From positions 1 through 63,809 of the forward strand of contig JAQBWN010000001.1 of assembly GCA_027624555.1 (NCBI GenBank): a stretch of 63,809 bases of DNA, in the 5' to 3' direction. The stretch is from a bacterium. GTDB lineage: Bacteria; Patescibacteriota; Andersenbacteria; UBA10190. Shown in pieces: positions 5,601-56,117 of this stretch; the stretch's first letter is position 1; each line of letters begins with the position of its first letter. The position numbers and the translations under genes are program-made. The notes beneath the pieces were generated by a model. That model saw only the letters and a list, made by a program, of their open reading frames with translations, was not told where the DNA came from and ran no database searches.

Positions 5601-5607
5601 TTCCAAG

Positions 5608-15364: not shown

Positions 15365-16006
15365 ATGCCAAAAACACCGACATTCGACATCGAACACCAG
15401 TATTGGTCACAAGACATCGCACATATTGCAGGGCTTGATGAGGCTGGAATGGGGGCGCTTGCCGGCCCGGTTATTGCTGGTGCGGTGGTGTTTTCAGAAT
15501 CTGCATTAGAAAAAATTATTGAAAACCAGAAAAGTTTTCCAATTAGAGATAGTAAATTATTATCAGAAAAGCAGCGCGAGAAATCAGCCGTCTTCATTCG
15601 AGAAATAGCACATTTTTTTGCAATTGGAATGGCAAGCGCAGAAGAAATTGATAAAATAAATATTCGCAATGCTTCTCACTTGGCCATGCGACGCGCTATT
15701 GATGGATTAGCAAAAAAACCAGACATGCTTTTGATCGACGGAACGAGTGGCACTATCCACCCAACCATCTTTTCACTGTCTATTATTAAGGGTGATCAAC
15801 TATCGTATTCAATTGCGGCCGCAAGTATTCTGGCAAAAGTTGCGAGGGATTCGATTATGAAAGAATTGCACACGTTGCATCCGGAATATGGGTTTGATTC
15901 CCATAAAGGGTATGGGGCGAAGAAACATATGGACGCGTTGGTACTGCATGGTGCAACAGAACATCATCGGAAATCTTATGCGCCGATAGCAAAGCTTTTA
16001 CAATAA
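15365..16006 (+). CDS. rnhB: Ribonuclease HII
   Basis: 213 aa from ATG 15365 (MPKTPTFDIE...). GLDEAGMGALAGPV, ASILAK, GYG motifs. The track ORF start (15308) lies inside tRNA-Arg. Confidence 0.9.
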   Translation: MPKTPTFDIEHQYWSQDIAHIAGLDEAGMGALAGPVIAGAVVFSESALEKIIENQKSFPIRDSKLLSEKQREKSAVFIREIAHFFAIGMASAEEIDKINIRNASHLAMRRAIDGLAKKPDMLLIDGTSGTIHPTIFSLSIIKGDQLSYSIAAASILAKVARDSIMKELHTLHPEYGFDSHKGYGAKKHMDALVLHGATEHHRKSYAPIAKLLQ

Positions 16007-16031
16007 GTGCAGACCATGCGGCATGCCGCTT

Positions 16032-16096
16032 AACCAGCCCTCACCCTCCCGCCTGCTGGCGAGGATCCCTCCCCCAAATTTGGGATAGGGGATACG
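16032..16096. repeat. GC-rich palindromic repeat, family A (long form, diverged)
   Basis: aaccagccctcaccctcccgcctgctggcgaggatccctcccccaaatttgggataggggatacg aligns along its length with 55438-55502. Confidence 0.75.
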
Positions 16097-18402: not shown

Positions 18403-18435
18403 AAAAACCTGCTCCTACGCAGGTTTTTATTTTTG
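18403..18435 (+). terminator. Rho-independent terminator
   Basis: aaaaacctgc-tcctac-gcaggttttt followed by atttttg. Confidence 0.75.
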
Positions 18436-18485
18436 TGGTAATATTTAGTAAACAATTACATATTTTTATTTTATTTGAATCGTTC

Positions 18486-21035
18486 ATGTATTACCTTCAC
18501 AAAAAAAGAGTTTTTCAATATATCTTTCTTTTTGCTTTTATTCTCTCGCCCCTTTCCTCCCACGCACAGACAAGCCCATATGGAAATCGTAATTCCACAG
18601 ATGCGCAAGATGCTCTTTCCGGAAAAGCAGGGGCATATAGTCCGCCAGCAGTATACGCAACAAAGACAACGCTAAACCCCATTGATGCATCTGGCACAAT
18701 TTCTGGAACATTTACCATATTAAACAACAGCAAAGAAACAGTAGGAGACATAAAATACCGCGTAGAATTACTCGAAGCTCTTCCGGAGGCAAATGAAAAT
18801 GAATTTGTTGAAGATACAGGGCGCTTGTACGACAGCGTACTATCTAAAGAAATATTTGCACTTCTAAGTGGGGAAGAAAAAGTTGTTCCATTTACATACA
18901 CCCCCCCAGCAGTTCCAGCGGGTGAATATCGTATTTCCATCCAAATTACAACGTCTCAAGGAAGAGACTTGGGTTGGGATACTACAAATGTTTCATTGCA
19001 AGGAACTGCTGATTCTTTTGTAGACCTCGTACCTGGGAATATCATCCTTCCAGAATTTCCTGATGAAGATATTCCATCAACGTCTGGGCCGAACGTTTCT
19101 CCAAATACTACTTTCTCGCTTGAAGCACTTGCGATAAATTCAGGGGATAGTGCAGTAACCGTGACTCCAACTCTTACTGTGTACAACCTTTCAACATCAA
19201 AGGGAGCCCTACAAACTATTCCTCAAGCAAGCATTACACTTACACCAAAACAAGAACTGGAATTTACGATACCTGTTACTGCAAGCACAACTGCCGGAGC
19301 ATACTACGGAACCGTATCTCTTATGTCTGGCGCTACGCGAGTATCCCCCATTGCAGAATACCGCTGGGTAGTCCGCGGTTCTTCCGGAGCTATTATTTCT
19401 GCACGCATCAACAAACTGTTCACGAAATCAACTGAACAAGTAGAAGTATCAGTAGATTACGCTGGCCCCGCAGATGCAGAGACAACTATCAAAGGAACGC
19501 TTCTCATTGAAGTGATAGATGCAAACGGTGTTGCAGGAACGTTCACCGTCCCTGAACAACTAGAACTCACCGACGGTATTGGAAGCGGAATAGCCCAAGT
19601 GCCTCTTACAAGAGACCTAGTTGGTACTCCAGGACTACGCGTTACGTTAAAAGCAGAAGACGGATCAATTCTTGATGTATACGAAGTTGCTATTCCGCTT
19701 ACTGACGAGCAGCTGAAAACACTCGTGCAAGTAGCAGATCCTGTAAACACCGATACAAAAGCAACAGGAAGCAAGCAGTTGGCGTTCTACCTCCTTGTCG
19801 CATCGCTTCTTGTCGGATTATTAGCGCTTGTTCTTCACATGCACAACAAGAAACATTCTACTGCAGTTCCTCTTGGCTTGTTACTCGTGCTTTCAACGCT
19901 CTTCACCATCACTCACGGAGTTCTTGCAGCTGGTAATGGCGCTGGGATAGAAGTGGTAAGTCCAATTACCTTCATCGAAACGCAAACTGGCTGGGGTGAT
20001 CTTGGCAATAAACCTGTTATTGAAGTATTTATTAACAGACCATTTCACGATATGAAAGTTGGAACATATAGCAAAAATGCTGTTCCTTTTGAATATCGCA
20101 TTGAATATGGGGCGTGTAAAAACGCAATTGCAGGTACTAAAATATTGGTTCGCTTCGACAAAAACGGTGGTAAGCATAGCAATTTGACGGGGTCTGGTTC
20201 TAGCGACTGGAAACAAATACTTGCACGTACATTTCGTACTCATAATTGTCGTAGTCACTTCTGTGTTATATCTAGATCTGGTCGCGCAAAATTAAACCTA
20301 TCTGCCTTGAATGCTGAAGCACCAGATACCACGCTACAAATTGGTTCATTTTGGGTAAACAATGAGCGGAAACAAGTAGACGTAGACTCATTTGAAACTG
20401 CTGGTTATTACATCGATAGAAAATATGCTCATATCGTAAACATGTGGCTCAACTTCCTTGATCCGCCAACTATAACGCCAACTCCTAGTCCTACACTAAC
20501 GCCTACTCCAACACCCACACCAACGCCTACCCCAACACCGACTATTCCCACTGACGCAAACAGAGCCCCATGGGCAGTAGCAAGAATGAGTATAGATAAC
20601 GGCGTAACATTTAGTTCGAATGTTACGGTTACTCAAGGTGAGCGTGTAAACGTCCGCATTGCTGCAGGGAGTAAGGGTGGTCGTGGAAGCTTTGACCCAG
20701 ACGGATGGGATACCGTAGGTAAAGGAGTATCTGTAGGCGGTGGTAAGATAGAATGGAACAACAACCTATGGCTAGGAGAACCGAGGTTTGAAAAAACATT
20801 CACAAACCCTAAAAGCCCTGGTGCCACTGAAATGAACCTAGGAGACAAGATATTCTATCTTGCACCCGGTGTATATACATATAATTTATTAAAAATAACT
20901 GATGCAGGAGGCCTTGTATCAAACATTGGTAAGGTAACACTTACGGTTATCGCCAATCTGACTACACCAACGCCACCACCAACACCCACACCAACCGTGC
21001 AATTTAACCCTGGCGGCTTTGTAGAAACACGGTAA
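18486..21035 (+). CDS. Large surface protein with two extracytoplasmic regions joined by a TM hairpin, plus Pro-Thr linkers
   Basis: 849 aa from ATG 18486. Signal peptide, internal TM pair (QLAFYLLVASLLVGLLALVL / AVPLGLLLVLSTLFTI), (PT)n linker at about 20470-20540 and a second at about 20960-20995. Confidence 0.6.
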   Translation: MYYLHKKRVFQYIFLFAFILSPLSSHAQTSPYGNRNSTDAQDALSGKAGAYSPPAVYATKTTLNPIDASGTISGTFTILNNSKETVGDIKYRVELLEALPEANENEFVEDTGRLYDSVLSKEIFALLSGEEKVVPFTYTPPAVPAGEYRISIQITTSQGRDLGWDTTNVSLQGTADSFVDLVPGNIILPEFPDEDIPSTSGPNVSPNTTFSLEALAINSGDSAVTVTPTLTVYNLSTSKGALQTIPQASITLTPKQELEFTIPVTASTTAGAYYGTVSLMSGATRVSPIAEYRWVVRGSSGAIISARINKLFTKSTEQVEVSVDYAGPADAETTIKGTLLIEVIDANGVAGTFTVPEQLELTDGIGSGIAQVPLTRDLVGTPGLRVTLKAEDGSILDVYEVAIPLTDEQLKTLVQVADPVNTDTKATGSKQLAFYLLVASLLVGLLALVLHMHNKKHSTAVPLGLLLVLSTLFTITHGVLAAGNGAGIEVVSPITFIETQTGWGDLGNKPVIEVFINRPFHDMKVGTYSKNAVPFEYRIEYGACKNAIAGTKILVRFDKNGGKHSNLTGSGSSDWKQILARTFRTHNCRSHFCVISRSGRAKLNLSALNAEAPDTTLQIGSFWVNNERKQVDVDSFETAGYYIDRKYAHIVNMWLNFLDPPTITPTPSPTLTPTPTPTPTPTPTPTIPTDANRAPWAVARMSIDNGVTFSSNVTVTQGERVNVRIAAGSKGGRGSFDPDGWDTVGKGVSVGGGKIEWNNNLWLGEPRFEKTFTNPKSPGATEMNLGDKIFYLAPGVYTYNLLKITDAGGLVSNIGKVTLTVIANLTTPTPPPTPTPTVQFNPGGFVETR

Positions 21036-23521: not shown

Positions 23522-25006
<1,485 letters not shown>

Positions 25007-25198
25007 AGGGAAACTGCCTACATACTATTCGCAAGATTAGAGTGTAGGACCTGGAAGTCGAGGCTTGTACACAATATGCGCAAGTATATTGGGAACGAGT
25101 CACAATTCTTTGAGAATAAGCGGAAAGCACACCTTCCCTTTAACACATGTGGTGTGCGAAAGAGGCAATACTTTACAATCGCGCAAAGCGGCGCAGGA

Positions 25199-25226
25199 AA
25201 ATAACCCCAAATGGGGTTATTTTTGT
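25199..25226 (+). terminator. Rho-independent terminator downstream of 16S
   Basis: aataacccc-aaat-ggggttatt followed by tttg. Confidence 0.7.
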
Positions 25227-25230
25227 TTAT

Positions 25231-25320
25231 GTCATTCCCGCGAATGCGGGAATCCAAGCGATGTGGATGCCCGATCCCAACGTCGCCAAGGCTATGCTGG
25301 GCGCGGCAAGTCGGGCATGA
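25231..25320. repeat. MITE-like repeat (gtcattcccg ... cgggcatga ends)
   Basis: gtcattcccgcgaatgcgggaatccaag... The right half cgtcgccaaggctatgctgggcgcggcaagtcgggcatga parallels 4788-4826. Confidence 0.7.
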
Positions 25321-25380
25321 AAACTCTGCCCATTTTCATTATTTCACGGCTCAATATAGCCTTATTTGTTTTTATGTACC

Positions 25381-25409
25381 TTGACACGATGTAAATATAG
25401 GAGTATGAT
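25381..25409 (+). promoter_or_regulatory. Sigma70-like promoter
   Basis: ttgaca (25381-25386), 17-nt spacer, tatgat (25404-25409). Confidence 0.55.
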
Positions 25410-25460
25410 GTGCGTATTCAGTTACGACCGCTCTTTCATTCTTTTGAGTCACCTGTGTAG

Positions 25461-25820
25461 GTGGTAAAAGAGAAGAAAATTTACAAGGAATTAATCGTGA
25501 ACAAGACAATGAAACAGTATTTTGCTCTCGAGGATTCGTTACTCGCCATCGTGCCAATAGCAGGCGTCGCTGATCCGAGTGGATACTTAGTCACACATCA
25601 TCGATCTTGCATGCTGTGCGACGCTAAAAAAGGGTGGGAAGACACTTTCAGCGACGCTCTTATTGCCCAGGGCGTGGATCTGGAAAGGGTTATCCAACTC
25701 GAATCTACACCCGGCGATCCGATTTTTAAGATGCGAGAAGGAAGGTTGAAGCTGATAAGCCGCTGCGTAAAGCTGGGGGTCATTCTCAGGGCCACGGCGG
25801 AGCTGCTTCCCGAAGATTAG
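25461..25820 (+). CDS. Hypothetical protein in the 16S to tRNA-Ile spacer
   Basis: 119 aa from GTG, or 103 aa from ATG 25509. Flanked by its own promoter and terminator. No recognisable motif. Confidence 0.45.
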   Translation: MVKEKKIYKELIVNKTMKQYFALEDSLLAIVPIAGVADPSGYLVTHHRSCMLCDAKKGWEDTFSDALIAQGVDLERVIQLESTPGDPIFKMREGRLKLISRCVKLGVILRATAELLPED

Positions 25821-25854
25821 GTGATCCAATGTCACACAATCGAAAAACGTCCAC

Positions 25855-25895
25855 AAACCCGATTCACACCAAAAATGTGAATGCGGGTTTTTTCT
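25855..25895 (+). terminator. Rho-independent terminator
   Basis: aacccgattcaca-ccaaaaa-tgtgaatgcgggtt followed by ttttc. Confidence 0.7.
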
Positions 25896-25936
25896 TGCAA
25901 AAAACGTAAATAAAATGTTTACTGTATTCACAGTAC

Positions 25937-26008
25937 GCGCGTGTAGCTCAGTGGTAGAGCACTACACTGATAATGTAGTGGTCGGAAGTTCGATCCTTCC
26001 CACGCGCA
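25937..26008 (+). tRNA. tRNA-Ile(GAU)
   Basis: gcgcgtg-ta-gctc-agtggta-gagc-a-ctaca-ctGATaa-tgtag-tggtc-ggaag-ttcgatc-cttcc-cacgcgc-a. No encoded CCA. Confidence 0.92.
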
Positions 26009-26037
26009 CTAATATAGATTGCTGTTATACTTACATA

Positions 26038-27621
26038 ATGCAACTTCCTCCCGAAGTACAAACGGTTATCGAAAAACTTAATTCCGCTGGTTTTGAGGCG
26101 TATGCCGTCGGCGGATGCGTGAGGGATCTTTTACTAGGCAAAGAACCAAAAGATTGGGATATAACTACTTCTGCAAATCCCGATGAAATACAAAAAGTAT
26201 TTCCGAATTCTTTTTATACGAATAATTTTGGAACGGTAACTGTTCGCACTGGCGCTTCCCGCCAAAGCTCCCACCCCCTCCAACTCCCCCTCGGGCAGGG
26301 GGAGAGAACTGCGACACCTATCTCGGAAATCGAAGTTACGACATACCGCATAGACGCGGGGTATAACGATCAGCGGCATCCGGATTCTGTGACGTTTACG
26401 AAAAGTTTAAAAGAGGATTTGGCGAGACGGGATTTTACGGTGAATAGTATGGCGTTAGCGCCCGGCCCCTCAACACCAGGTGTTGGCGCGTTAACACCTG
26501 GTGTTTTCCCGCCGGGCGCCAGCGACACCGTCGTCATCGACGGCATGACGATCATCGACCCATTTGGCGGATTACAAGATTTACACAACCAATTGATTCG
26601 CGCGGTTGGCACGCCAAGCGAACGGTTTTCTGAAGATGCGCTTCGCTTAATGCGCGCCGTACGATTTTCTGCACAGCTTTCATTTAAGATAGAAGAACAT
26701 ACACTCAAAGCGATTACAGAATATGCGCCATCAATTACTGCCGTATCTCATGAACGCATTTGCGATGAATTAATAAAAATTGTTGAAAGTAAAAATCCCG
26801 AAAACGGAATGAACGTATTGCAACAAACCGGGCTGCTTGCTTTAATACTCCCCGAAGTTCAAGAGGGGGTTGGTGTAGGGCAAAATAAACATCACATTTA
26901 CACTGTCTTCGACCACTGCATTAAATCTTTACAATATGCTGCGCATTTTGAATATCCACTGCATGTTCGCCTGGCTGCACTTTTTCACGATATCGGGAAA
27001 CCCCGCACTAGAAGGCTTGCGCCTTCAGTGCAGGGCAAGGCCCCTGATTATACTTTTTATGGGCATGATATTGTCGGCGCACGCATGACGGAACACCTCA
27101 TGAAACGATTAAAGTTTTCGAGTGAACTGACGAAGCAAGTAAGCCACCTCGTTCGCCAACACATGTTTTATTACGATGTGGATAAAGTCACACCGGCTGG
27201 CGCACGAAGACTACTCCGAAGAGTTGGGAAAGAAAATTTTGGCGATTTAATTAAACTCCGCATTGCCGAACGCAAAGGTTCTGGCGTTCCAAAAGCAGAG
27301 CCGTACAGGCTACGCCATTTGCAGTTCATGGTAGAAAACGCTTCTAAGGAACCAATATCCGTAGGCCAGCTTGCTATCTCGGGCAATGAATTAGTGAACG
27401 ATTTAGGTATGCGTCCAGGACCAATATTCGGCGGAATACTAAATGCATTACTCGCAGAGGTATTAGAAGACCCGAAGAAAAATACAAAAGAATATCTCTT
27501 GCAGCGAGCAAGTGAGATAAAGGATAAAAGCCCAGATGAACTTAAAAAACTTGGAGCAATTGCAATTGAAGAGGAAGAGAAAAAACAGGAAGAAGAGATA
27601 AAACGAAAATATCACGTGTAG
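26038..27621 (+). CDS. cca: CCA-adding enzyme (class II nucleotidyltransferase with HD domain), carrying two in-frame repeat insertions
   Basis: 527 aa from ATG 26038 (MQLPPEVQTVIEKL...). GGCVRD motif, RDFTVNSMA, DALRLMRAVRF, HDIGKP. The track ORF start (25915) lies over tRNA-Ile. Confidence 0.88.
   Translation: MQLPPEVQTVIEKLNSAGFEAYAVGGCVRDLLLGKEPKDWDITTSANPDEIQKVFPNSFYTNNFGTVTVRTGASRQSSHPLQLPLGQGERTATPISEIEVTTYRIDAGYNDQRHPDSVTFTKSLKEDLARRDFTVNSMALAPGPSTPGVGALTPGVFPPGASDTVVIDGMTIIDPFGGLQDLHNQLIRAVGTPSERFSEDALRLMRAVRFSAQLSFKIEEHTLKAITEYAPSITAVSHERICDELIKIVESKNPENGMNVLQQTGLLALILPEVQEGVGVGQNKHHIYTVFDHCIKSLQYAAHFEYPLHVRLAALFHDIGKPRTRRLAPSVQGKAPDYTFYGHDIVGARMTEHLMKRLKFSSELTKQVSHLVRQHMFYYDVDKVTPAGARRLLRRVGKENFGDLIKLRIAERKGSGVPKAEPYRLRHLQFMVENASKEPISVGQLAISGNELVNDLGMRPGPIFGGILNALLAEVLEDPKKNTKEYLLQRASEIKDKSPDELKKLGAIAIEEEEKKQEEEIKRKYHV
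26268..26315. repeat. GC-rich palindromic repeat, family B (short form), in frame inside cca
   Basis: ctcccaccccctccaactccccctcggg-cagggggagagaactgcgac. The first 28 nt are identical to 50515-50542. Translated as ...SSHPLQLPLGQGERTAT... Confidence 0.8.
26458..26519. repeat. GC-rich nested palindrome, in frame inside cca
   Basis: gcgcccggc...aacaccaggtgtt-ggcgcg-ttaacacctggtgtt...gccgggcgc. Translated as APGPSTPGVGALTPGVFPPGA between RDFTVNSMA and IDPFGG. Confidence 0.7.
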
Positions 27622-27670
27622 CGCTTCTCCCCCTTTTCAAGGGGAGGAGAACGTATGTTACAATTTATTC

Positions 27671-27925
27671 ATGTCATTCCTCTTTTTCTTTCTCGGCTCG
27701 CTCATGATGATCGCCGGCTTTATGATGGTTTGGAAAACAGCATGGTGGGAAAATAATTGGGGAGATATCGGTGCCATGGTCGGCATTCACGGATCTGCAC
27801 TTTCTAGTTGGAAAATTGCCGGGGTTATTATGATGTTTATCGGATTCCTCGTTGCGTTCAATATTTTAGGAAGCCTTTTCTACTTATTAGTAGGACAATT
27901 TATCCCCACAGGATTCGGGCAATAA
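27671..27925 (+). CDS. Small membrane protein (84 aa, 3 TM)
   Basis: Hydrophobic ORF with no known motif. Confidence 0.5.
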   Translation: MSFLFFFLGSLMMIAGFMMVWKTAWWENNWGDIGAMVGIHGSALSSWKIAGVIMMFIGFLVAFNILGSLFYLLVGQFIPTGFGQ

Positions 27926-28017
27926 ATTTGCAAAATCATACATAAAAAGGTTAAATAAGATTTGTAGTTCATAGCAACAGAAGGGCGTAGCCCTGAAGTG
28001 TGCTTGTCACTACTTCA

Positions 28018-28090
28018 GGGCCCCTAGCTCATTTGGTAGAGCGCCTCGCTTGCACCGAGGAGGTGATCGGTTCGAATCCGATGGGGTCCA
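28018..28090 (+). tRNA. tRNA-Ala(UGC)
   Basis: gggcccc-ta-gctc-atttggta-gagc-g-cctcg-ctTGCac-cgagg-aggtg-atcgg-ttcgaat-ccgat-ggggtcc-a. G3:U70 identity pair present. Confidence 0.92.
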
Positions 28091-28196
28091 CTTGCTTTTT
28101 ATCGCTATCCTCGCTAGGGTAGCGATACTGTTTACCAGATACGTATCTGGCCTGGATTGGACATTTACTTACAAATATTTTCAAGGGATCGCTCTG

Positions 28197-28880
28197 ATGA
28201 ATGAGAGTCTCAAACTTCAATTGCTTCAGATAGCTCAAAAACGAGATGCCCTACGAATGGATCAGGCAATCTTCACACTGAAATCTGGCCGGCAAAGCCC
28301 ATACTTCTTCAATGCCGGCATGCTTCAAGATGCGGAAGCTTATGAAATTCTTTCAGAAGCATTTGCTTCAGCAATCGAAGACGAATGCCGAAACGGATTG
28401 TCATTTCACACACTCTACGGACCGGCATCCAAAGGAATACCGCTTGCAATGATTGCGGCTACGGGTCTTTACCGACGCAATCGTTCATATCGTTTTCCTT
28501 TTGTGTTCAACCGCAAAGAATCAAAAGACTACGGGGAAAAAAGGGGGTTTCTCGTTGGGGATTCCATTTTAGGCAGGCGAATACTCATAGTGGACGATGT
28601 AATTACCGCAGGCACCGCCGTAGAGGAATCTATTGAGCATATTAAAAGTGCCGGAGGAATCCCTGCGGGTCTCGCAATTATTCTGGATCGACAGGAAAGA
28701 GGCAAAGATACGGCCGACTCTGCGATTCAGGAAGTTCAAAAAAAATATCACATGCCCGCTTTTAGTATTTTGAAGCTCGACGATCTTTTAAAACATTTAG
28801 GAGAAATGAACGTTCCTCCCGAGATCGCGAATGCGATGCAAGAGTACCGCGCTCAGTACGGAGTGACGTACGAGGAATAA
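28197..28880 (+). CDS. pyrE: Orotate phosphoribosyltransferase
   Basis: 227 aa from ATG 28197 (MNESLKLQLL...). FTLKSGRQSPYFFN and the PRPP motif ILIVDDVITAGTA. The track ORF start (28050) lies inside tRNA-Ala. Confidence 0.88.
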   Translation: MNESLKLQLLQIAQKRDALRMDQAIFTLKSGRQSPYFFNAGMLQDAEAYEILSEAFASAIEDECRNGLSFHTLYGPASKGIPLAMIAATGLYRRNRSYRFPFVFNRKESKDYGEKRGFLVGDSILGRRILIVDDVITAGTAVEESIEHIKSAGGIPAGLAIILDRQERGKDTADSAIQEVQKKYHMPAFSILKLDDLLKHLGEMNVPPEIANAMQEYRAQYGVTYEE

Positions 28881-28891
28881 CACAACACGAC

Positions 28892-28928
28892 GAGCCGCAA
28901 TCACTTCAATTGCGGCTCTTTTTCTTTT
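28892..28928 (+). terminator. Rho-independent terminator
   Basis: gagccgcaa-tcacttca-attgcggctc followed by tttttctttt. Confidence 0.8.
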
Positions 28929-28994
28929 GACTTATATCTACCCGAGGAATACGCTAAATATAGTTTTCATCCTTCATACTCGAATCGAAAGGAG

Positions 28995-29714
28995 GTGTCA
29001 CTTATGGCAGAATATAATTCTTTCTTAACAGTTTGGGCAGGTGCAGTAGGAACGTCCTTAACCGACCTTTGGTTTCAATTTGTAAGCATTATTCCTAACG
29101 TCATTGCGGCTCTCGTCGTGTTCTTTATTGGATGGAGTATTGCAATTGGCCTTGGGAAATTAGTTGAAAAACTCATGGTAATGCTTCGCATCAACAGCGC
29201 GTTTGATTCCATAACGGGTCTCAAACGAGCAGTAGAACAAGCAGGGTTAAAGTTGGATATTGCTCATCTTCTTGGGGAAATCTTTAAATGGTTCCTCATT
29301 ATTGTGACGCTCTTAGCATCTACCGACATTTTGGGATTAAACCAAGTATCTCAATTCCTAAACGCGGTACTTGTGTACATTCCAAATGTTATAGTTGCAG
29401 CAATAATACTCGTTATCTCTGTAGTGCTTGCGAACTTCGTGTATCGCACAGTACTCGCGAGTGTTGAAGCAGCAGGCTTTACAAGCGGAGGTGCAATTGC
29501 AGCACTTAGCAAATGGTCAATCTTGGTCTTTGCTATCCTTGCAGCATTGCTCCAATTAAATGTAGCAACTCAACTTCTTCAAACGTTCCTCACTGCATTC
29601 TTCGCAATGGTTGCAATAGCAGGCGGGCTCGCGTTTGGATTAGGAGGTAAAGATCTTGCAGCAAAATGGCTTCAAAAAGCCGAGCATGATCTATCAGGAA
29701 AAAGACATCTATAA
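28995..29714 (+). CDS. Membrane protein with repeated conserved TM-helix modules (MscS-associated TM_helix-like)
   Basis: 239 aa (GTG 28995 or ATG 29004). Four or five TM helices with repeating NVIAALVVFFIGW / NVIVAAIILVISV type segments. Confidence 0.5.
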   Translation: MSLMAEYNSFLTVWAGAVGTSLTDLWFQFVSIIPNVIAALVVFFIGWSIAIGLGKLVEKLMVMLRINSAFDSITGLKRAVEQAGLKLDIAHLLGEIFKWFLIIVTLLASTDILGLNQVSQFLNAVLVYIPNVIVAAIILVISVVLANFVYRTVLASVEAAGFTSGGAIAALSKWSILVFAILAALLQLNVATQLLQTFLTAFFAMVAIAGGLAFGLGGKDLAAKWLQKAEHDLSGKRHL

Positions 29715-29728
29715 GACATGAGAATAAT

Positions 29729-29763
29729 CCTCCTTCGCCCTTACGGGCTTCGGCGGACAAAGC
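29729..29763. repeat. GC-rich repeat, family C
   Basis: cctccttcgcccttacgggcttcggcggacaaagc. Its reverse complement shares gtccgccgaagcccg...gggcgaagg with 35082-35127. Confidence 0.65.
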
Positions 29764-29786
29764 AAAAGCAACTTGTCTACAAAGAT

Positions 29787-29822
29787 AAAAACGACCCCTT
29801 AGCAGTAGGTGGGTCGTTTTTA
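29787..29822 (+). terminator. Rho-independent terminator
   Basis: aaaacgaccc-cttagcagtaggt-gggtcgtttt followed by ta. Confidence 0.65.
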
Positions 29823-29879
29823 TATAGTAACGGTTTATGATATTCTTGAATTACATACTATAATCTCCCTCTAACCAAT

Positions 29880-30470
29880 ATGACCCTAAATCAATACCTA
29901 CGCATAACATCTGTTGCGATGCCTATTTTTGCTGCTGCATACATAGCATTTTACTTTGCATCTAAGCTCCTTAGTGTTCCTGGCCCTCGTCGTGGTGACG
30001 TAATAGGGTACATAATTTCCGATACAGCTATATTTGTTATTCCTTTTGTGCTGGGAGGATTATCACTGCGATTAGCAGCAGGTCTTTCACAATCTAGTTC
30101 TACATTGCAAAATTCCTACCTTAATCCGAAAGTAAGGAAGACTGCTATTCTTACCCTTGCAGCATACACCGCGCTCTCCATTGGACTTGCCACCGTAATA
30201 CCACTAGAGCAGATGGACTGGAAAACCCTATCATATGGCCCTATGGGACCAGCAGCTCCTTTAATTTTTGCAGGTATTTTATTCTTCTGGTTTTTTGGCC
30301 AAATAATCACATTAATCGCATGGAGTATAATCAGGACAAAAATACGGAAGAATGCTCCTGAGGATTCATGGCTAAGACTAAGTTTTATCACACTCAATAT
30401 ATTACACATAGTAGGAATCTTGAGTATTGTTTTTTACTTCATACTCGCGATCGGAGAGGGATTGTTTTAG
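29880..30470 (+). CDS. Hypothetical polytopic membrane protein
   Basis: 196 aa with about 6 hydrophobic spans. No motif recognised. Confidence 0.5.
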   Translation: MTLNQYLRITSVAMPIFAAAYIAFYFASKLLSVPGPRRGDVIGYIISDTAIFVIPFVLGGLSLRLAAGLSQSSSTLQNSYLNPKVRKTAILTLAAYTALSIGLATVIPLEQMDWKTLSYGPMGPAAPLIFAGILFFWFFGQIITLIAWSIIRTKIRKNAPEDSWLRLSFITLNILHIVGILSIVFYFILAIGEGLF

Positions 30471-30554
30471 CCTGATTGGATTACACTGTGTAGGTGGCTC
30501 GTTTTTTGTTAGTGAAGGTTAGCGTCAGAGAATAACAAGTGATACAATTCGGAA

Positions 30555-30935
30555 ATGGATCTACTAATAGCCTTACCCGCCTTAGCGATATTATTACTTA
30601 GTATTTTTGTTGGGCAGCCTTGGAAACGTGGTATTAGCATAGCGTCTTCTTTTGTGTACATCCTAGTTGCAATACTTTTATTTGTGATTCCATCGTTCAT
30701 TCCCATAACCACCTCTAATCCTGGCTATGGTTCTCCTACAGGTCTCGTGAGGACTTTCTATTACGGACTGGCTCTTGTAACCTTTTTTCCACTGTCCGTG
30801 GTTATGTTATGCATTGACCTTCTAGTAAGTAGGCAAAAAATCGTCCTCGGCAATGGCACAAAAATCATTTGTGGCCTTATTTACATTGCCACACTTACTA
30901 TATTTCTTTGGGGATTTAATCTTGCTTTAAAATAG
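30555..30935 (+). CDS. Hypothetical membrane protein
   Basis: 126 aa with about 4 hydrophobic spans. No motif recognised. Confidence 0.45.
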   Translation: MDLLIALPALAILLLSIFVGQPWKRGISIASSFVYILVAILLFVIPSFIPITTSNPGYGSPTGLVRTFYYGLALVTFFPLSVVMLCIDLLVSRQKIVLGNGTKIICGLIYIATLTIFLWGFNLALK

Positions 30936-30948
30936 CCCTAAATACCCC

Positions 30949-30976
30949 TTGACACGCCTACTTATCCCCATATACT
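30949..30976 (+). promoter_or_regulatory. Near-consensus promoter for the 23S-5S unit
   Basis: ttgaca (30949-30954), 16-nt spacer, tatact (30971-30976). Same hexamers as the 16S promoter. Confidence 0.6.
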
Positions 30977-31480
30977 ACTTAATAACTACGAACCGCCTCT
31001 GGCAGTTCCTCTAGACAACAAAATCATCCTAGAGAATAAGGAATTAAAGTGTAAGATTTTTTGTCTGTGGGTTGATTTATATTTCTTATTGTAAGGTTCT
31101 GAACTTTGACAATTTACTATAACGAAAGAAAGAAGATTCTATTGCAAAGAATCAAGAAAATAGATCACGCATGTAGATAGTAATAATGTATTACTAGCTC
31201 ATGCAATGCATATCCAAAAACTGTGACAAATAAAGTGAAATAATCATGTGTCATACACCGTTAAGAGTATATGGTGGATGCCTTGGTAATAGACAACGAT
31301 GAAGGACGTGGCCGGCTGCGATAAGCTACGGGTAGGTGCTGAGCAACCGATGATCCGTAGATTTCCGAATGGGGAAACCCCTTTACCGTAATTGGTATTG
31401 ACTACCTTGCTGCAAGGCAGGGATAGGGATAACCTGGCGAATTGAAACATCTTAGTAGCCAGAGGAAAAGAAACGAACGA

Positions 31481-31577
31481 TTAATTATTATTTTGTAGTT
31501 AGTAGCCAGTAGTGAGTAGTGCGTTTACGCGTCCTACTTACTACGAACTAAAACCTATTTAGTAAGTAATTAGTTAC
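31481..31577 (+). other. AT-rich expansion segment / intervening sequence in 23S domain I
   Basis: Inserted between ...gaaaagaaacgaacga and attcccccagtagtggcgagcgaa, which are contiguous in E. coli 23S. Internal hairpin: gtagtgagtag (31509-31519) with ctacttactac (31534-31544). Confidence 0.75.
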
Positions 31578-31872
31578 ATTCCCCCAGTAGTGGCGAGCGA
31601 AAAGGGAGGAGCCTAAACCATGTATGCGTAATAGCTCATAAGGCGTTGCATATGTGGGGTTGCAAGGTAATGCACTGTAAATTTATGAAAAACAAACGAA
31701 ATGTAAATGTCTGTCTAGAAGAACGCGGCTGGAATGCCCGACCATAGAGGGTGAGAGTCCCGTACACGAAAGATACAATTACTTCGTTCGCATTACCTTA
31801 AGTAGGGCGGGACACGTGAAATCCCGTTTGAATCCGGGAGGACTAAACTCCCAAGGCTAAATATGTCTATTA

Positions 31873-31911
<39 letters not shown>

Positions 31912-33377
31912 CACCCCGTTAAGGGGAATGAAATAGACCTGAAACCATATACTTACAGAGAGTAGGAGCTCCGCATTTATGCGGGGTGACTGCGTGCTTT
32001 TTGCAGAACGAACCATCGAGTTCGCTGTATGCCGTTTGCTTAAGTCTCATTCGAGACGGAGGCGTAGCGAAAGCGAGTATTAATAGTGCGTTTATAATGG
32101 CATGCACGAGACCCGAAACCGGGTGATCTATCCATGAGCAGGGTGAAGTTTTGCGAAAGCAAAATGGAGGCCCGAACCCGTTGGCCGTTCAATACCATGG
32201 GATGACTTGTGGATAGCGGAGAAATTCCAATCGAACCCGGAAATAGCTGGTTCTCGTCGAAATAGCTTTAGGGCTAGCCTCGTGAGTTACCCAAGAGAGG
32301 TAGAGCACTGCAAGGGATTAGAGGGCTTTACGTTCTCAACCCTAGCAAACTCCGAATACTCTTGGCTTTCATCACGGGAGTCAGAACGTGGGGGCTAAGC
32401 TCCACGATCAAAAGGGAAACAGCCCAGATCATAACTTAAGGTCCCAAAATGCTGCCTAAGTGGTTAAGGTGGTGGAGTTGCACAGACAGCGAGGCAGTTG
32501 GCTTAGAAGCAGCCACCTGTTAAAGAAAGCGTAATAGCTCACTCGTTAAGCGATTCTGCGCCGAAAATTCAACGGGGCTCAAGGCAGCTACCGAAAGTAT
32601 GAATGCCCTCGCCTTAAAACGAGGGCGTGGTAGACGAGCGTTTCATTTGCGTCGAAGGTGTACCGTGAGGTCCGCTGGAGCGAATGAAAGTGAGGATGAT
32701 GGTATAAGTAACATGACACATGGTGAGAACCCATGTCACCGTAAATCTAAGGTTTCCTGGGCAATGTCGATCATCCCAGGGTTAGTCGATCCTAAGCTCA
32801 GGCCGAAAGGCGTAGGCGATGGACAGCAGGTTAATATTCCTGCACCGACTATATAGTTCGTATAGCATGACGAATCGTCGCACCTTGTCAGGACATATGA
32901 CTTATTCCTGCGCGGCACATGTAGTTGGACCGCTTTGGTAAATCCGGGTGGTTTCCGCTTCGGCGGGTAACAGTGAAGTGTCTCGGGAGAGCGCGAGCTT
33001 CGGCTCAAACCTCTATAAGGAAAGAAGGTTCCCGGAAAAGTGTAGTACGATTTCCTATATGGCCGATCGTACCGAAAACCAACACAGGTAGATGGATGTA
33101 AGTGCATTAAGGTGATCGGGAGAACCCTCGTTAAGGAACTCGGCAAAACAGCAGCCGTACGTTCGCAATAAGGCTTCCCGTTATGGCTCGCAAGAGTTGT
33201 GACGGGCGCAGCGCAAGATCCCTGGCGACTGTTTACCAAAAACACAGGTTCCTGCTAACTCGTAAGAGGATGTATAGGAGCTGACTCCTGGCCAGTGTCG
33301 GAACGTTAAACCCGCTTGTTAACGCGAGTGGGCCAAGCGCCGATGAACGCCGGCCGTAACTATAACGGTCCTATGGT

Positions 33378-33730
33378 AGAGGAATTTACCCCAATATTAT
33401 ATATTGTGGCTTTTGCTGCCTTAGTAAAACTTAGCTATATGCTGGAAACCCTGAGTATCTCAAGATACTAATTTGTCATTCCGGACTTGATCCGGAATCC
33501 AAGTAGTGAAAATTCTTGAGTGCAGACAATCAGCAGGAAACCATTCTGTAAAAAGAATAGGATCCTCAGAGACTACACGCTAGGCCCTGAACCCCACGTG
33601 GTTTAGGGATGATATAGTCCGACCTGTATGGCGACATACAGAGCTTGCGAGAAATCGTAAGCCACGTAATTGGTAAAAAAGCGAAACTTAACGAAGAAAA
33701 TAATCGAGAGACAATACGTCGTAACATTCG
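33378..33730 (+). ncRNA. Group I intron in 23S rRNA (about E. coli position 1931), no ORF
   Basis: Interrupts ...aacggtcctatggt | agcgaaattccttg.... The 5' exon ends in U and the intron ends in G33730. Canonical R element tcagagactacacg (33566-33579) and S element gatgatatagtcc (33608-33620). P8: ccctgaacc/ggtttaggg. Confidence 0.85.
33472..33503. repeat. MITE-like left-end module nested inside the 23S intron
   Basis: tttgtcattccggacttgatccggaatccaag parallels 5609-5640 (tttgtcatgccggacttgatccggcatccaga). Confidence 0.7.
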
Positions 33731-34283
33731 AGCGAAATTCCTTGGCAGGTAAGTTCTGTCCCGCACGAATGGAGTCACGACTGGGGAACTGTCTCAACGA
33801 GGGACCCGGTGAAATTGCAATGTCGGTAAAGATGCCGCCACCCTGCGGCTAGACGGAAAGACCCCATGAAGCTTCACTGCAACTTGGTATTGGCTCTTCG
33901 AACATAATGCTCAGTATAGGTGGGAGACTATGATGGCTCTGCTTCGGCGGAGTCGGAGTCACAATATGAGATACCACCCTTTATGTTTGACGCGTCTAAC
34001 AGCGTAGTGTGAAACCACTACCTGGACAGTGCCTGGTGGGTAGTTTATCTGGGGCGGATTCCTCATAAATTGTAACTGAGGAGCCTATAAGGTCAGCTAG
34101 ATACGGATGGAAACCGTGTCGATAGTGCAAAGGCATAAGCTGGCTTCACTGCAAGACATACATGTCGCGCAGACACGAAAGTGGAGCTTAGTGAACCGAC
34201 CGTTCTCATATAGAAGAGCGGAAGATCATCGGATAAAAGCTACTCTGGGGATAACAGGCTTATCTCCCCCAATAGTCCACATA

Positions 34284-34318
<35 letters not shown>

Positions 34319-34540
34319 CTATCCTGGGGCTGAAGAAGGTCCCAAGGGTTTGGCTGTTCGCCAATTAAAAGGGTACGCGAGCTGGGTTCAAACCGTCGCA
34401 AGACAGGTTGGACCCTATCTGTCGCAGGCGTGGAAACTTGAGGATCGTCCTTCCTAGTACGAGAGGACCGGAAGGGACCAACCTCTGGTGTACCAGCTGT
34501 TCAGTTCTTGAGCATTGCTGGGTAGCTACGTTGGGCTGGT

Positions 34541-34572
<32 letters not shown>

Positions 34573-34910
34573 CAATCCAAGACCAGGTTTCGTATGAGAC
34601 TCCTAGAAGACTACTAGGTTGATAGGTGGGAGGTGTACGCGCAGCAATGCGTTGAGCCGACCCATACTAATTAGTCCAGTTGTATGAATACGTGTTTATT
34701 TCACTTGACGTGAACTGAAACGGTTCGTACTTCCTCGCAAGATATAAATATTAGAATAAGCAATTAGGTCTAGTAAAAGGGAAGGCAAGTCACAGTGATG
34801 TATACGCAAAGCTGGGCTAGTAATATATTAGTACTATTACATAGCGTGATCATATATCTTGTTCAAGTAATAGAGTTTTCTTTCTTTCGTTTATATTTCT
34901 TCGATCTAAT

Positions 34911-35032
34911 GTTCGCGGTGTCTCAAGCGAAAGGGAAACACCTGTTCCCATTCCGAACACAGCAGTTAAGCCTTTCAGCGCCGATGGTAGTTAGAATTAA
35001 TACTTTAGCAAGAGTAGGCCGATGCCGCGTAC
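34911..35032 (+). rRNA. rrf: 5S ribosomal RNA
   Basis: ...cctgttcccattccgaacacagcagttaagc...gccgatggtagt...agagtaggc.... Terminal helix gttcgcggtg with tgccgcgtac. Confidence 0.9.
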
Positions 35033-49899: not shown

Positions 49900-50676
49900 A
49901 TGGACACTTTTCAACTTTATCCAATCGGATCCATCCTAAGCAGACCCGAAGAAGCCACTCAAGGATATCTAGATATCGTCAGCTTATTACCTCAAAATAT
50001 AAAGGATATTCTTGCTGCTCCCAATTCCGCTGCTTTCGTCCTTGGCATTGTTAAAAGCTACAACATAAGTGAAGCTCAGGCGCCAAGTATTGCCTTTGAG
50101 ATTCTTGAGGTAGCTATTGGCAAGAAAACTTTTGCTCAGCTTTCGGGAGTTTTTGTTGCAGAACTTGGACTTGCACCCGATCAAGCTCAAAAAATGGCAC
50201 TAGAAATTGAGAAAGATATATTTGGGCCGATTAAGGGGGAATTGGATGAATTTTTGCGAGGGCAAAAGGGTAGCGAGACAACCCCGAGTATCGCTTCTCC
50301 CCAGCCTTCGCTAAAGCTTCGGCCGGCAGGCACCCCACCCAACCTCCCCTCAGTCAGCGGGAGAGGCGCGGCGCAACCTAACAATTTGCTAGACCTGAAA
50401 GAAATAGCTGCTGCGAAGAGGCAGGAGCAGTTGGCGGGGAAACCGACGCAAAAACAGTTACCTAAACGACAGGTGACAGCGCGGATTGCGCCTCCGCAAC
50501 AGCCACCTGCGCCACTCCCACCCCCTCCAACTCCCCCTCGGGCCCCACTTCGCCCGCTGGCTTCGAGGGGCGCAGCAGGGGGAGAGAACGCTACGACGCC
50601 TACGTTTCCCTTGCCAGCACGCACACCTCTACCAAAGCCGGCGGTTTCTCCGCTTGATTTTAGTAAGTATCAATAA
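49900..50676 (+). CDS. Hypothetical protein with a Pro-rich C-terminal half containing a family-B repeat
   Basis: 258 aa. No TM helices. The repeat at 50515-50597 is translated as ...PPPPTPPRAPLRPLASRGAAGGENATT... Confidence 0.5.
   Translation: MDTFQLYPIGSILSRPEEATQGYLDIVSLLPQNIKDILAAPNSAAFVLGIVKSYNISEAQAPSIAFEILEVAIGKKTFAQLSGVFVAELGLAPDQAQKMALEIEKDIFGPIKGELDEFLRGQKGSETTPSIASPQPSLKLRPAGTPPNLPSVSGRGAAQPNNLLDLKEIAAAKRQEQLAGKPTQKQLPKRQVTARIAPPQQPPAPLPPPPTPPRAPLRPLASRGAAGGENATTPTFPLPARTPLPKPAVSPLDFSKYQ
50515..50597. repeat. GC-rich palindromic repeat, family B (long form), in frame inside a CDS
   Basis: ctcccaccccctccaactccccctcggg + 33-nt extra module + cagggggagagaacgctacgac. The flanks match 26268-26315. 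Confidence 0.8.
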
Positions 50677-54883: not shown

Positions 54884-56117
54884 TAGATAGAGCCGTCAGC
54901 AGCCACCACAGTGCCGATAAGTCGTTTTTCCAGTAGATAGTGTCGAATAAACCGAATATAAGGATAGATATGAGGGCGAGAGTGGTTGCGTGTTGATGCG
55001 TTGCGCTTCTCCCACCCCCTCGGCGTATTGCGACAATGTTTAGGCCAATAAAGCTTACCAAGCCGACCACACCGACGTTTAGCCAAAACGAAATTATCCA
55101 GTTATGCGGGTCGCGGAAGACGAACTCGGGTATTAGCTTATAGCTTTTAGCTTCGCTAGCTTCATTAGCTTGCGTTGCGAATAATGCATGTAGCTCGGCT
55201 TGGTATGCTGGCTCAAATTGCCCGAGGCCGATACCTAATATAGGGTTTTTTTGAATTAAACGAACGCCAATATCCCACAATTGCAGCCGAACGGTAGCGG
55301 AATTGGAAGTATTTTGGTGAATAAGAGGGGAAACAAGGTACTGGATGCGTCCGGAGAGGGTGAAAAAGGCGAATATGAGAATAAATAACATTAAAAGTAA
55401 TAGTGCGGATAATGGCAAACCATACTGTATGCCGCCTAACCTGCCCTCACCCTCCCGCCTGCGGGCGAGGAGCCCTCTCCCCAATTGGGGAGAGGGGAAA
55501 CGGACCGTAAACAAAAACCCTATCAACGCAGTTCCAGCTATCGCGACAACTGCTCCAAACGACTGCGTCCAAATAATAGTTATTAGCATTATTAGGGATG
55601 CAAGCTGATAAAAACGATTTTTTTGCTGCATCCCGACCCAAAAAGCTATAAAAAAAACAGGACTTAAAAATAACGCGAGGGAGTTGGGCACGTCGTAAAT
55701 GCTTTGAATCCGTCCAAAACCGTCTATTTGCGATATACCAAGCAGGGCTACTACGAGACCCGACATAATTAACGAATGAATCACTTTTTTCCGATCAGCA
55801 GTATGTATTAACAGCCCAAACAGCATCGGAACCACAACCCAACCCTTTAGTATTCCTAAGCTAGAGCGCAACACGGGCGAAAATAGCGTAGAAACCACGG
55901 CAGACAGTAAGAATAAACACGCAAAGAGCGTAAAGCTGCGTGGCAGAGCTCGAAGCGCACTAAATAATCGATGGCGCGATTTTTTATTCCAAATAGCACT
56001 AATAAAAACCGTAATAACTAATATCTCAAAAAGATTTATAGGGATGCCAAGTAAAGAAAATCTAATGATATACGTAGGGAGTAGACCTGCCAGTGCCACC
56101 ATAAGCGTTGTAATCAC
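54858..56117 (-). CDS. O-antigen ligase / polymerase-like (Wzy_C) membrane protein carrying a family-A repeat in frame
   Basis: 419 aa (GTG start). At least 10 TM helices. PHNWIISFWLNVGVVGL motif. The repeat is translated as FPSPQLGRGLLARRREGEGRLGG. Confidence 0.65.
   Translation of the reverse strand: MITTLMVALAGLLPTYIIRFSLLGIPINLFEILVITVFISAIWNKKSRHRLFSALRALPRSFTLFACLFLLSAVVSTLFSPVLRSSLGILKGWVVVPMLFGLLIHTADRKKVIHSLIMSGLVVALLGISQIDGFGRIQSIYDVPNSLALFLSPVFFIAFWVGMQQKNRFYQLASLIMLITIIWTQSFGAVVAIAGTALIGFLFTVRFPSPQLGRGLLARRREGEGRLGGIQYGLPLSALLLLMLFILIFAFFTLSGRIQYLVSPLIHQNTSNSATVRLQLWDIGVRLIQKNPILGIGLGQFEPAYQAELHALFATQANEASEAKSYKLIPEFVFRDPHNWIISFWLNVGVVGLVSFIGLNIVAIRRGGGRSATHQHATTLALISILIFGLFDTIYWKNDLSALWWLLTALSTKEQLIVD
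55438..55502. repeat. GC-rich palindromic repeat, family A (long form), in frame inside a CDS
   Basis: aacctgccctcaccctcccgcctgcgggcgaggagccctctccccaattggggagaggggaaacg. Same ends as 3150-3197, which lacks the internal cccgcctgcgggcgaggagc module. Confidence 0.8.

Follow-up and report, generated by a model that had tools for sequence, protein, structure and literature searches.

The 63,809-nt stretch of DNA analyzed here (hereafter the window; contig JAQBWN010000001.1 of assembly GCA_027624555.1, from the Andersenbacteria lineage UBA10190 of the Patescibacteriota; ~44% G+C overall) carries two copies of a short, GC-rich repeat built of a box and a hairpin, one lodged inside the gene for the CCA-adding enzyme (cca) and the other in a gene for a conserved hypothetical protein. 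On the sequence evidence, we propose that this repeat is probably a selfish, non-autonomous and proliferating DNA element of the Candidate Phyla Radiation (CPR)/Patescibacteria, copies of which would be translated through and tolerated in loops of their host proteins. The proposal builds on features that can be directly observed: the anatomy of the unit; the family to which it belongs; its bias towards the interior of genes; the preservation of the reading frame around it together with a skew in frame use; its location in a loop of the CCA-adding enzyme; and the turnover of modules at the same site in related genomes.

The repeat unit and its two host genes

The 28-mer CTCCCACCCCCTCCAACTCCCCCTCGGG occurs exactly at 26268-26295 and 50515-50542, as the initial annotation of this DNA had reported, and allowing as many as 3 mismatches adds no further match in the window (chance expectation 0). 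In both copies the unit goes on with CAGGGGGAGAGAAC (26296-26309 and 50576-50589), which amounts to 42 identical nucleotides in total where 0 would be expected by chance; past this shared ending, which had likewise been noticed, the similarity becomes weak (TGCGACACCT versus GCTACGACGCCT). The short unit thus measures 42 nt (26268-26309) and the long one 75 nt (50515-50589), each length being a multiple of three. The difference is an extra internal module of 33 nt at 50543-50575, rightly recognized earlier, which is nested in the hairpin loop and lengthens the stem. The 42-nt unit has 71% G+C as against ~44% for the window and, read directly, has zero stop codons in all six frames. The copies, their parts, their hosts and the related features are as follows:

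26038..27621, + strand: host gene 1, class II CCA-adding enzyme; intact, with two inserted loops
26268..26309, + strand: copy 1, short form, 42 nt; hairpin present in both the minimum-free-energy and the centroid structures; translated within cca as (S)SHPLQLPLGQGER(T)
Parts of copy 1: box 26268-26280; linker CAA 26281-26283; hairpin 26284-26304, with arms 26284-26291 and 26297-26304 and loop CGGGC; tail AGAAC 26305-26309
26310-26319: diverged 3' extension TGCGACACCT of copy 1, past AGAAC, weakly similar to GCTACGACGCCT
26450..26527, + strand: second, unrelated palindromic insert in cca; fold z -6.3
27627..27652, + strand: box-less hairpin CTCCCC-CTTTTCAA-GGGGAG with a GAGAAC tail; fold z -3.2
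49900..50676, + strand: host gene 2, conserved hypothetical protein, with copy 2 in its Pro-rich C-terminal part
50515..50589, + strand: copy 2, long form, 75 nt; translated as LPPPPTPPRAPLRPLASRGAAGGEN, in a frame differing from that of copy 1; inner module recurs alone at loci L036 and L001
5' parts of copy 2: box 50515-50527; linker 50528-50530; 5' arm 50531-50538; loop start CGGG 50539-50542
3' parts of copy 2: module 50543-50575; loop end C 50576; 3' arm 50577-50584; tail 50585-50589
50590..50601, + strand: 3' extension GCTACGACGCCT, common to a third copy in the source metagenome
55009..55021, + strand: third exact box CTCCCACCCCCTC, an orphan or decayed copy with no canonical hairpin following

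Both copies had been described as lying in frame. This holds in that both open reading frames (ORFs) stay open; the two copies are, however, translated in different frames (SHPLQLPLGQGER for copy 1 and LPPPPTPPRA...GGEN for copy 2), and hence the repeat is a DNA-level unit and not a protein motif. Compared with shuffled sequences, neither the short nor the long form has a significant folding energy (z -0.8 and -0.6), because a composition so rich in C and G folds well even when shuffled; the hairpin is backed by conservation, not by folding energy. The 3' extension, for which the third copy in the source metagenome has AACGCTACGACGCCT (at a loose contig end), is confined to this subfamily, the wider family being without conservation beyond +4. 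The hairpin that had been flagged just past the cca gene (27627-27646) is indeed present: it starts 6 nt after the stop codon, is without a box, has a tail resembling that of the element, and is a related module or remnant. The orphan box, for its part, sits within the minus-strand O-antigen-ligase-like ORF 54858-56117.

Copy 1 lies, as previously placed, between the FGTVTVR and EVTTYR segments of the CCA-adding enzyme, where it is read as SSHPLQLPLGQGERT; the predicted tryptic peptide across the insert is QSSHPLQLPLGQGER. The true start of cca is at 26038, the upstream part of the listed ORF being tRNA-Ile, and its product has the PolyA_pol head, RNA-binding, HD and tRNA_NucTran2_2 domains. 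Relative to solved CCA enzymes, it shows two extra segments, at FGTVTV/EVTTYR and NSMA/IDPFGG. The first of these loops spans 26 aa here and has a modal length of 9 aa (62 among 120 close homologues), with assorted Pro/Gly-rich inserts at the same loop in 24 of 121 (e.g., PHPNPLPIRGEG and TPSDSPLSGREGSRPDKG). Relatives are either empty or carry a different element at this point: homologue P0003 (83% identical) has no element; P0001 (85% identical) has a different box-hairpin family; and P0005 has a copy that belongs to the subfamily of copy 1 and has diverged, with a mutated box, the loop TAGTA and the stem kept. The exact 42-mer is found elsewhere in the genomes of P0001 and P0005 (L001 and L014). 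The precise junction between empty and filled states at cca is not definable, as the nearest empty allele, that of P0003, has a differently built loop.

An AlphaFold (AF2) model of the enzyme has a mean pLDDT of 88.3 and is confident outside the two inserted loops. The pLDDT drops below 50 over residues 77-89, which are the peptide of the element in the loop joining strands 66-70 and 97-102, and falls again at residues 149-156 in the second insert. The mapping onto homologues and structure that had been suggested as a check thus places the insert in a low-confidence loop between two strands, and on this model it is probably read as a floppy surface loop. Further, every residue invariant in 63 aligned homologues is kept; hence, the earlier suggestion that the enzyme tolerates the insert stands as far as sequence and model can tell.

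Copy 2 was correctly assigned to the Pro-rich C-terminal part of ORF 49900-50676, whose neighbors are PrgI-like, VirB4/TraG-like and type IV secretion system (T4SS)-pilin-like genes. Homologues P0125 and P0128 are without the entire inserted C-terminal stretch and P0122 has the inner module; the C-terminal region of this protein is an insertion hot spot.

The insertion in cca is not an assembly artefact, the other possibility that had been raised against it. In the source run, independent unitigs span both of its junctions (25900-26307 and 26278-26497) at a depth of ~6, which is the depth of the flanks. Over the element itself the depth reaches 62.5 as against ~6 in the flanks; the contigs that contribute to it are each at a genome-like depth of 5-8, which implies roughly ten copies. 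The contigs of other copies join or leave at 26268 and 26305-26307, thereby marking the ends of the element. In two groundwater runs, related populations have an empty allele, with 22 nt in place of 26247-26325. Assemblies from short reads do break at the repeat.

The family in CPR genomes and its place in genes

Scans of one genome per species recovered 15 loci with the exact 28-mer and at least 112 with the 21-nt hairpin. Among the matches listed, ~106 of 118 hairpin copies have the box either 2-5 nt or one module upstream. From 5' to 3', the architecture comprises: (i) a 13-nt C-rich box, CTCCCACCCCCTC or rarely CTCCCTCCCCCTC; (ii) a linker of 2-5 nt that is typical of the lineage (CAA, TAA, CAG, TTTAT, TGCTT and others); (iii) an 8-bp GC hairpin, CTCCCCCT-CGGGC-AGGGGGAG; (iv) a purine tail of 3-5 nt, A-R-A. 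In the same matches the core is 37 nt long in 55 copies and 39 nt in 30, and longer copies have an additional hairpin module between box and hairpin or within the loop. Loop-nested forms are seen outside the window at L009, L030 and L118, and the 33-nt inner module of the window recurs in two other Andersenbacteria-like contigs (L036 and L001; blastn-short). The boundaries of the element are sharp: across 106 aligned copies the information content is at background directly 5' of the box and 4 nt 3' of the hairpin, and the flanks on both sides are unrelated among loci. The named hosts are Andersen-, Doudna-, Magasanik-, Uhr-, Falkow-, Kaiser-, Buchanan- and Cerribacteria.

The hallmarks of several known kinds of mobile DNA are missing from these copies. 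In the frequency of 3-6 nt direct repeats spanning the element there is no excess over a shifted control, giving no target-site duplication; the junction profile of the aligned copies displays no target consensus beside the insertion point; there are no terminal inverted repeats, as the 5' box has no inverted 3' partner and the palindrome is internal; and neither GTAG nor CGTC appears as a tag in the consensus or the junction profile. The hairpin 21-mer had 0 matches in the viral contigs scanned, and hence there is no sign of a phage vector. Searches of Rfam recovered no family at the gathering threshold and, at E up to 1, only sub-threshold matches to generic miRNA hairpins.

With respect to the range of the family, a genome scan with a 14-nt box alone was uninformative (family members at 2 of 120 loci, namely L151 and L170), because a 14-mer matches by chance throughout high-GC genomes. 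Matches in Kitasatospora with the hairpin and no box were taken as chance. We do not claim a spread across phyla to the Gammaproteobacteria or Saccharibacteria, as the respective TPA_asm labels look wrong: the "uncultured Candidatus Saccharibacteria" assembly CAYIHP01 (L001 and L120) encodes a CCA-adding enzyme 85% identical to that of our Andersenbacteria genome, and loci under the label "uncultured Gammaproteobacteria" (L002, L004, L005 and others) have 55-78% amino-acid identity to named CPR loci. The same 14-nt box, with GC hairpins after it, is also found in a Binatia metagenome-assembled genome (L138, 296-360) and in a cyanobacterium of the Elainellaceae (L180, 632-680); box-hairpin repeats of similar design may exist in other phyla, while the other box-only matches outside CPR mostly look like chance. 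As a separate observation, L010 and L015 have head-to-head pairs: 15-20 nt upstream of the box there is a sister-family copy (CCTCCTGCCTGAGGAGG plus GGGGTGGTGGGAG) in inverted orientation; this paired arrangement (~60 nt upstream of the element) recalls the doublets known as REPINs.

To define location, we counted a copy as intragenic if it lay in an ORF of 150 codons or more and had 25 codons or more to either side. By this measure, 72 of the 105 distinct copies from the matches listed are intragenic, and 17 of 20 host ORFs scanned have Pfam matches, mostly on both sides of the element. The hosts so identified include LeuRS, CysRS, IleRS, PheT (with two copies), MnmA, UvrA, class II ribonucleotide reductase (RNR), GyrB, SMC, phosphoglucomutase (PGM), PPDK, a P-type ATPase and LytR. 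Among the 68 copies flanked on both sides by 60 or more open codons, 63 have the same reading frame before and after the element, as against ~23 expected if unconstrained; this test does not presuppose an open frame through the element. The 72 intragenic copies are divided into 31 sense and 41 antisense, and their use of the six frames is uneven (9, 7, 15, 9, 1 and 31 copies; chi-square 44.5, p 1.8e-8), with the extremes at frames A2 (31 copies) and A1 (1 copy). The commonest frame gives SPPARGG(V/A)GGGG and the nearly absent one SPCPRGSWRGWE; a Trp/Cys/Arg-rich frame is thus avoided and a Gly-rich one favored. This skew argues for selection on the peptide. Taken together, the preserved frame and the peptide-dependent skew fit translation through the element and not its removal or bypass, and the element is probably translated through as a tolerated loop.

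The identity of the two window copies had originally been read as a mark of recent mobility in preference to convergent coding. That this is mobile DNA is borne out by the different frames, both orientations, sharp boundaries, unrelated flanks and the absence of the element from close homologues of both hosts; its recency does not follow, for identity alone does not date an insertion. Indeed, the orthologous sites present both change and constancy. Modules are gained and lost rapidly: although the flanks of L069 and L107 are 92-95% identical, the site holds a 57-nt form in one and a 37-nt form in the other, and L020 and L068 show whole-module differences of 9 and 42 nt. Box and hairpin are, in turn, identical at orthologous sites whose coding flanks are only 71-79% identical, and identity despite such diverged flanks implies that a force other than youth also keeps copies alike. 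Yet other copies are decaying, such as that in the cca gene of P0005 and the orphan box at 55009-55021. The overall pattern looks like that of an element population with birth, homogenization or re-insertion, and death.

Known repeats and competing explanations

Palindromic repeats lying in frame in many unrelated housekeeping genes are on record from Rickettsia as the Rickettsia palindromic elements (RPEs; Ogata et al. 2000, 2002, as recounted in PMC10969869 and PMC3733652). Going by those accounts, the two systems have in common a small-genome, host-dependent bacterium, in-frame palindromes in housekeeping genes, compatibility with the fold and function of the host protein, and no known transposase. 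They also make RPE-1 ~100-150 bp long with a conserved peptide in one frame, whereas the CPR unit is 37-42 nt and is read mainly in five frames and in both orientations. The short RPE-4 and RPE-6 have a CGTC tag, whereas the CPR element is without CGTC or GACG; it is, moreover, GC-rich (71% as against 44% for the window), with a conserved non-palindromic box and nested modules, and extends across several classes where RPEs are found in one genus. Thus, the in-frame palindrome is as in RPEs, while length and tag set the CPR element apart from them as described.

By way of analogy, the element is strikingly like the GC clusters of yeast mitochondria, which are short GC-rich palindromes, one of them in frame in var1 (PMC8811140). 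The likeness includes a GC-rich palindrome whose genome has a lower G+C, in-frame insertion with an effect on protein size, rapid loop change, the merging and shuffling of clusters into new ones, and a presumed spread by conversion or transposition. The GC clusters differ in being organellar, mostly intergenic, without a conserved 13-nt box and equipped with terminal AG/TAG repeats taken as target duplications, none of which was detected in the CPR element; those of Magnusiomyces are bypassed, whereas the CPR copies keep frame. Palindrome, loop change, merger and in-frame position are therefore shared, and the AG/TAG repeats and organellar host are not: the rRNA, tRNAs and housekeeping genes of the window are those of a bacterium.

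Repetitive extragenic palindromic sequences (REPs) and REPINs are imperfect palindromes of 20-40 nt with one conserved asymmetric end, occurring as singlets, inverted pairs and clusters (PMC3116915, PMC3733652). They too have occasional intragenic copies, often in DNA repair genes, and persist long in a lineage, and the CPR element compares with them in its palindrome (8-bp stem, 5-nt loop) and copy number (~10 in the source genome, >100 loci). It differs in having no GTAG/CGTC tag, in being mostly intragenic instead of extragenic (72 of 105 in ORFs) and in its patescibacterial hosts. No REP-associated tyrosine transposase (RAYT) is among the 45 ORFs scanned in the 64-kb window, which is a part of the genome only.

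Miniature inverted-repeat transposable elements, or MITEs, have terminal inverted repeats and target-site duplications as their defining features and usually exceed 100 bp. Like members of this class such as Correia, ERIC, RUP and BOX, the CPR element is small, non-autonomous, multi-copy and sometimes part of in-frame fusions; it is without terminal inverted repeats or a target-site duplication of 3-6 nt. The uptake motifs of Neisseria (DNA uptake sequence, DUS) and Haemophilus (uptake signal sequence, USS) occur about once per kb. Those very dense motifs arise by substitution, whereas the CPR copies are insertions relative to homologues and there are 3 boxes in 64 kb.

The element is, hence, not a member of the RPE, REP, MITE or GC-cluster groups, because its size and tag are wrong for RPEs and REPs, it lacks the terminal inverted repeats and target-site duplication of MITEs, and it is without the AG/TAG repeats of GC clusters and resides in a bacterium; it is an apparently new family of intragenic palindromic repeats. 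Its unusual traits are a mostly intragenic location, presence in several CPR classes, a non-palindromic box, nested modules and conservation above that of coding flanks. In the Patescibacteria literature, with few subscription journals covered, we found neither a report of REPs nor a description of palindromic, MITE-type or intragenic repeats of this kind.

We advance the following mechanism for the selfish repeat proposed at the outset. A trans-acting machinery that recognizes both the sequence and the structure of box and hairpin would make the copies, most plausibly on single-stranded DNA; the nesting of modules in linker and loop, which would be single-stranded if the element is folded, points to such a mechanism. 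Recognition coupled to re-insertion or conversion might then keep box and hairpin identical while linker, loop and flanks drift, and the entry of extra hairpin modules into linker and loop could give rise to the long forms. Copies would land anywhere and in either orientation. As the unit is free of stops and usually has a length divisible by three, insertions in surface loops would simply be translated into Pro/Gly-rich, disordered loops of 13-25 residues, which purifying selection might not remove even from essential genes, cca among them; insertions outside tolerated places would be lost.

Several points weigh against this proposal. No transposase, HUH endonuclease, reverse transcriptase or integrase is among the 45 window ORFs scanned, and the lack of a target-site duplication, target consensus or terminal inverted repeats means that no known transposition chemistry is indicated; within the proposal, we accordingly regard any single class of enzyme as a tentative candidate at best. 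The copy set was picked by the exact hairpin 21-mer, so that the conservation of the hairpin is not measurable from it, and the intragenic calls are based on ORF length, with Pfam silent on 3 of the 20 host ORFs checked. Moreover, L021 and L076 share 45 identical nucleotides inside flanks that are ~71% identical, for which our arithmetic gives 0.71^37 ~ 3e-6. An element better kept than its coding flanks is not purely neutral and needs re-insertion, conversion or selection.

One extension of the proposal, improbable in our estimation, would meet this last point with a CPR-wide, actively maintained replicator: a conserved host-encoded protein would recognize the 13-nt box and 21-nt hairpin on single-stranded DNA and copy or convert them. 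Copying into both new and old sites would explain identity across classes and at orthologous sites, and coding sequence would be the main space colonized because these tiny genomes have almost no intergenic space. If true, the replicator would keep supplying essential proteins with new surface loops, and it might also act as a recombination or uptake signal in bacteria reliant on scavenged DNA. Selection could instead act locus by locus on a signal that benefits the host (in uptake, recombination or repair, chromosome organization or as an RNA hairpin), with the coding copies as an accepted cost. Such a signal would account for box and hairpin being identical across several CPR classes and within orthologous flanks only 71-79% identical, as also for the variation of loop and linker around a kept stem, which the loop changes in P0005 even lengthen; REPIN-RAYT populations are reported to be able to persist long. 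However, there are only ~10 copies of the subfamily per genome and 2-3 per 64 kb, far under the densities of uptake signals; the near-equal numbers of sense and antisense copies in genes (31 and 41) speak against a role at the transcript level; copies decay, as seen in the mutated box of P0005 and the orphan box at 55009; and sites are empty or occupied by other families in close relatives. We hence consider a host signal unlikely. Our estimate is lower still for an ordinary REP/REPIN mobilized by a RAYT (Y1 HUH, IS200/IS605 group) whose gene would lie at another place in each genome. A length of 37-42 nt, an imperfect palindrome and an asymmetric conserved end do match the REP design, the head-to-head pairs in L010 and L015 (inverted partner 15-20 nt upstream) resemble its doublets, loop-nested modules fit a single-strand mechanism, and intragenic REPs are documented in several species (PMC3733652). 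Yet the defining GTAG/CGTC end tag is missing from both element and junctions, at least 69% of these copies are intragenic whereas REPs are mostly extragenic, and the window ORFs scanned include no RAYT-like gene. Insertion of the IS200/IS605 type leaves a conserved 4-5 nt target adjoining the insertion point, and none is seen beside these copies.

Two further readings question whether the insert reaches the protein or is real at all. The peptide might never be made, with the insert excised at the mRNA level or passed over by the ribosome, as happens with the byps of Magnusiomyces, in whose mitochondria GC-rich hairpins in coding regions are bypassed (PMC8811140). Besides this precedent, the genome of the window has self-splicing group I introns in RNA genes. 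Removal or bypass would lift coding constraint, yet frame is kept in 63 of 68 copies (63:5), the unit is stop-free, frame use is skewed to mild peptides, and no Rfam family matches. We also know of no self-splicing intron of a size near 42 nt, which is far below that of any such intron. On these grounds we take removal or bypass to be very improbable. The notion that the similarity is a chance product of low complexity, reflects convergent coding for Pro-rich segments or comes from a chimeric assembly at the repeat draws on the Pro/Gly-rich nature of both host regions and the breaks of short-read assemblies at the repeat; against the 42 identical nucleotides with 0 expected, the different reading frames of the two window copies, the presence of the unit in >100 independent assemblies, and unitigs that cross both junctions at flank depth with the ORF open through the insert, its likelihood is close to negligible.

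The genomes of CPR/Patescibacteria are ~1 Mb in size, contain very little non-coding DNA and have usually been portrayed as having few mobile elements. Against this backdrop, what is new is a family of 37-42 nt repeats residing mainly inside essential genes (those for aminoacyl-tRNA synthetases, gyrase, UvrA, SMC, RNR and the CCA enzyme), common to several CPR classes and building nested long forms. A selfish repeat of this kind would explain much of the unexplained length variation and the Pro/Gly-rich "low-complexity" segments of CPR proteins, as also the in-gene breaks of short-read CPR assemblies, and would add to Rickettsia a second bacterial system in which to study how selfish insertions are absorbed by proteins. 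In practical terms, the copies could serve as strain-typing markers and call for caution in annotation and structure prediction, while box and hairpin together would make a well-defined bait for the machinery that moves the element.

Other repeats and the genomic setting

The second cca insert (26450..26527) has a double AACACCWGGTGTT within a GCGCCCGGC/GCCGGGCGC stem and encodes the loop APGPSTPGVGALTPGVFPPGA (...TPGVGALTPGV...). Another Andersenbacteria genome has the double motif in frame in a TraG/VirD4-like gene (L067, 869-902), and the motif is thus a further intragenic repeat family; the motif is also listed at L076 (2264-2276). As this palindrome lies ~165 nt downstream of the element, and as L067 shows the same pair ~150 nt apart, the two had suggested the ends of one composite. 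We rejected this, for the DNA between them encodes conserved residues of the CCA-adding enzyme and, in L067, the pair flanks a TraG/VirD4-like zinc ribbon.

The cca gene is placed in the 16S-23S spacer, between both spacer tRNAs, of a stretched rRNA operon (23522-35030). The operon begins with the 16S gene (23522-25004), tRNA-Ile (25937-26009), cca and a small membrane ORF (27671-27925); it continues with tRNA-Ala (28018-28091), further ORFs (one with a phosphoribosyltransferase domain, one mechanosensitive-channel-like and two without a Pfam assignment), the 23S gene (31251-34689) and 5S. The relatives at L119-L121 keep the order of cca, the small ORF, and Pribosyltran or the mechanosensitive channel.

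Another set of repeats in the window, Family A (55409-55502, 16003-16096 and 3168-3194), has a related design: the C-rich box CCCTCACCCTCCC comes first, and after it stand two hairpins, of which the second is CCCTCTCCCCAATTGGGGAGAGGG. In the O-antigen-ligase-like ORF 54858-56117 of the minus strand, one copy lies in frame (FPSPQLGRGLLARRREGEG); the remaining two are intergenic, one of them directly past the stop of the RNase HII gene. A tandem repeat of 12 nt (20467-20548, and 20962-20995) makes up a Thr/Pro-rich stretch of the 866-aa ORF 18435-21035, which has no Pfam match. By the Rfam gathering score, there are two group I introns, at 33383-33641 inside the 23S rRNA gene and at 4029-4311. 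The latter adjoins a tRNA-like 5' half (~4048-4080) that is not called by ARAGORN and may belong to an intron-split tRNA. Finally, a 49-nt stretch with the hairpin GTCATKCCGGACTTGATCCGGMATCC is 78% identical between 5589-5637 and 33453-33501, the second copy being within the 23S group I intron; in L036, the region of the 33-nt inner module is flanked by a similar hairpin, CCGGAATGAC.

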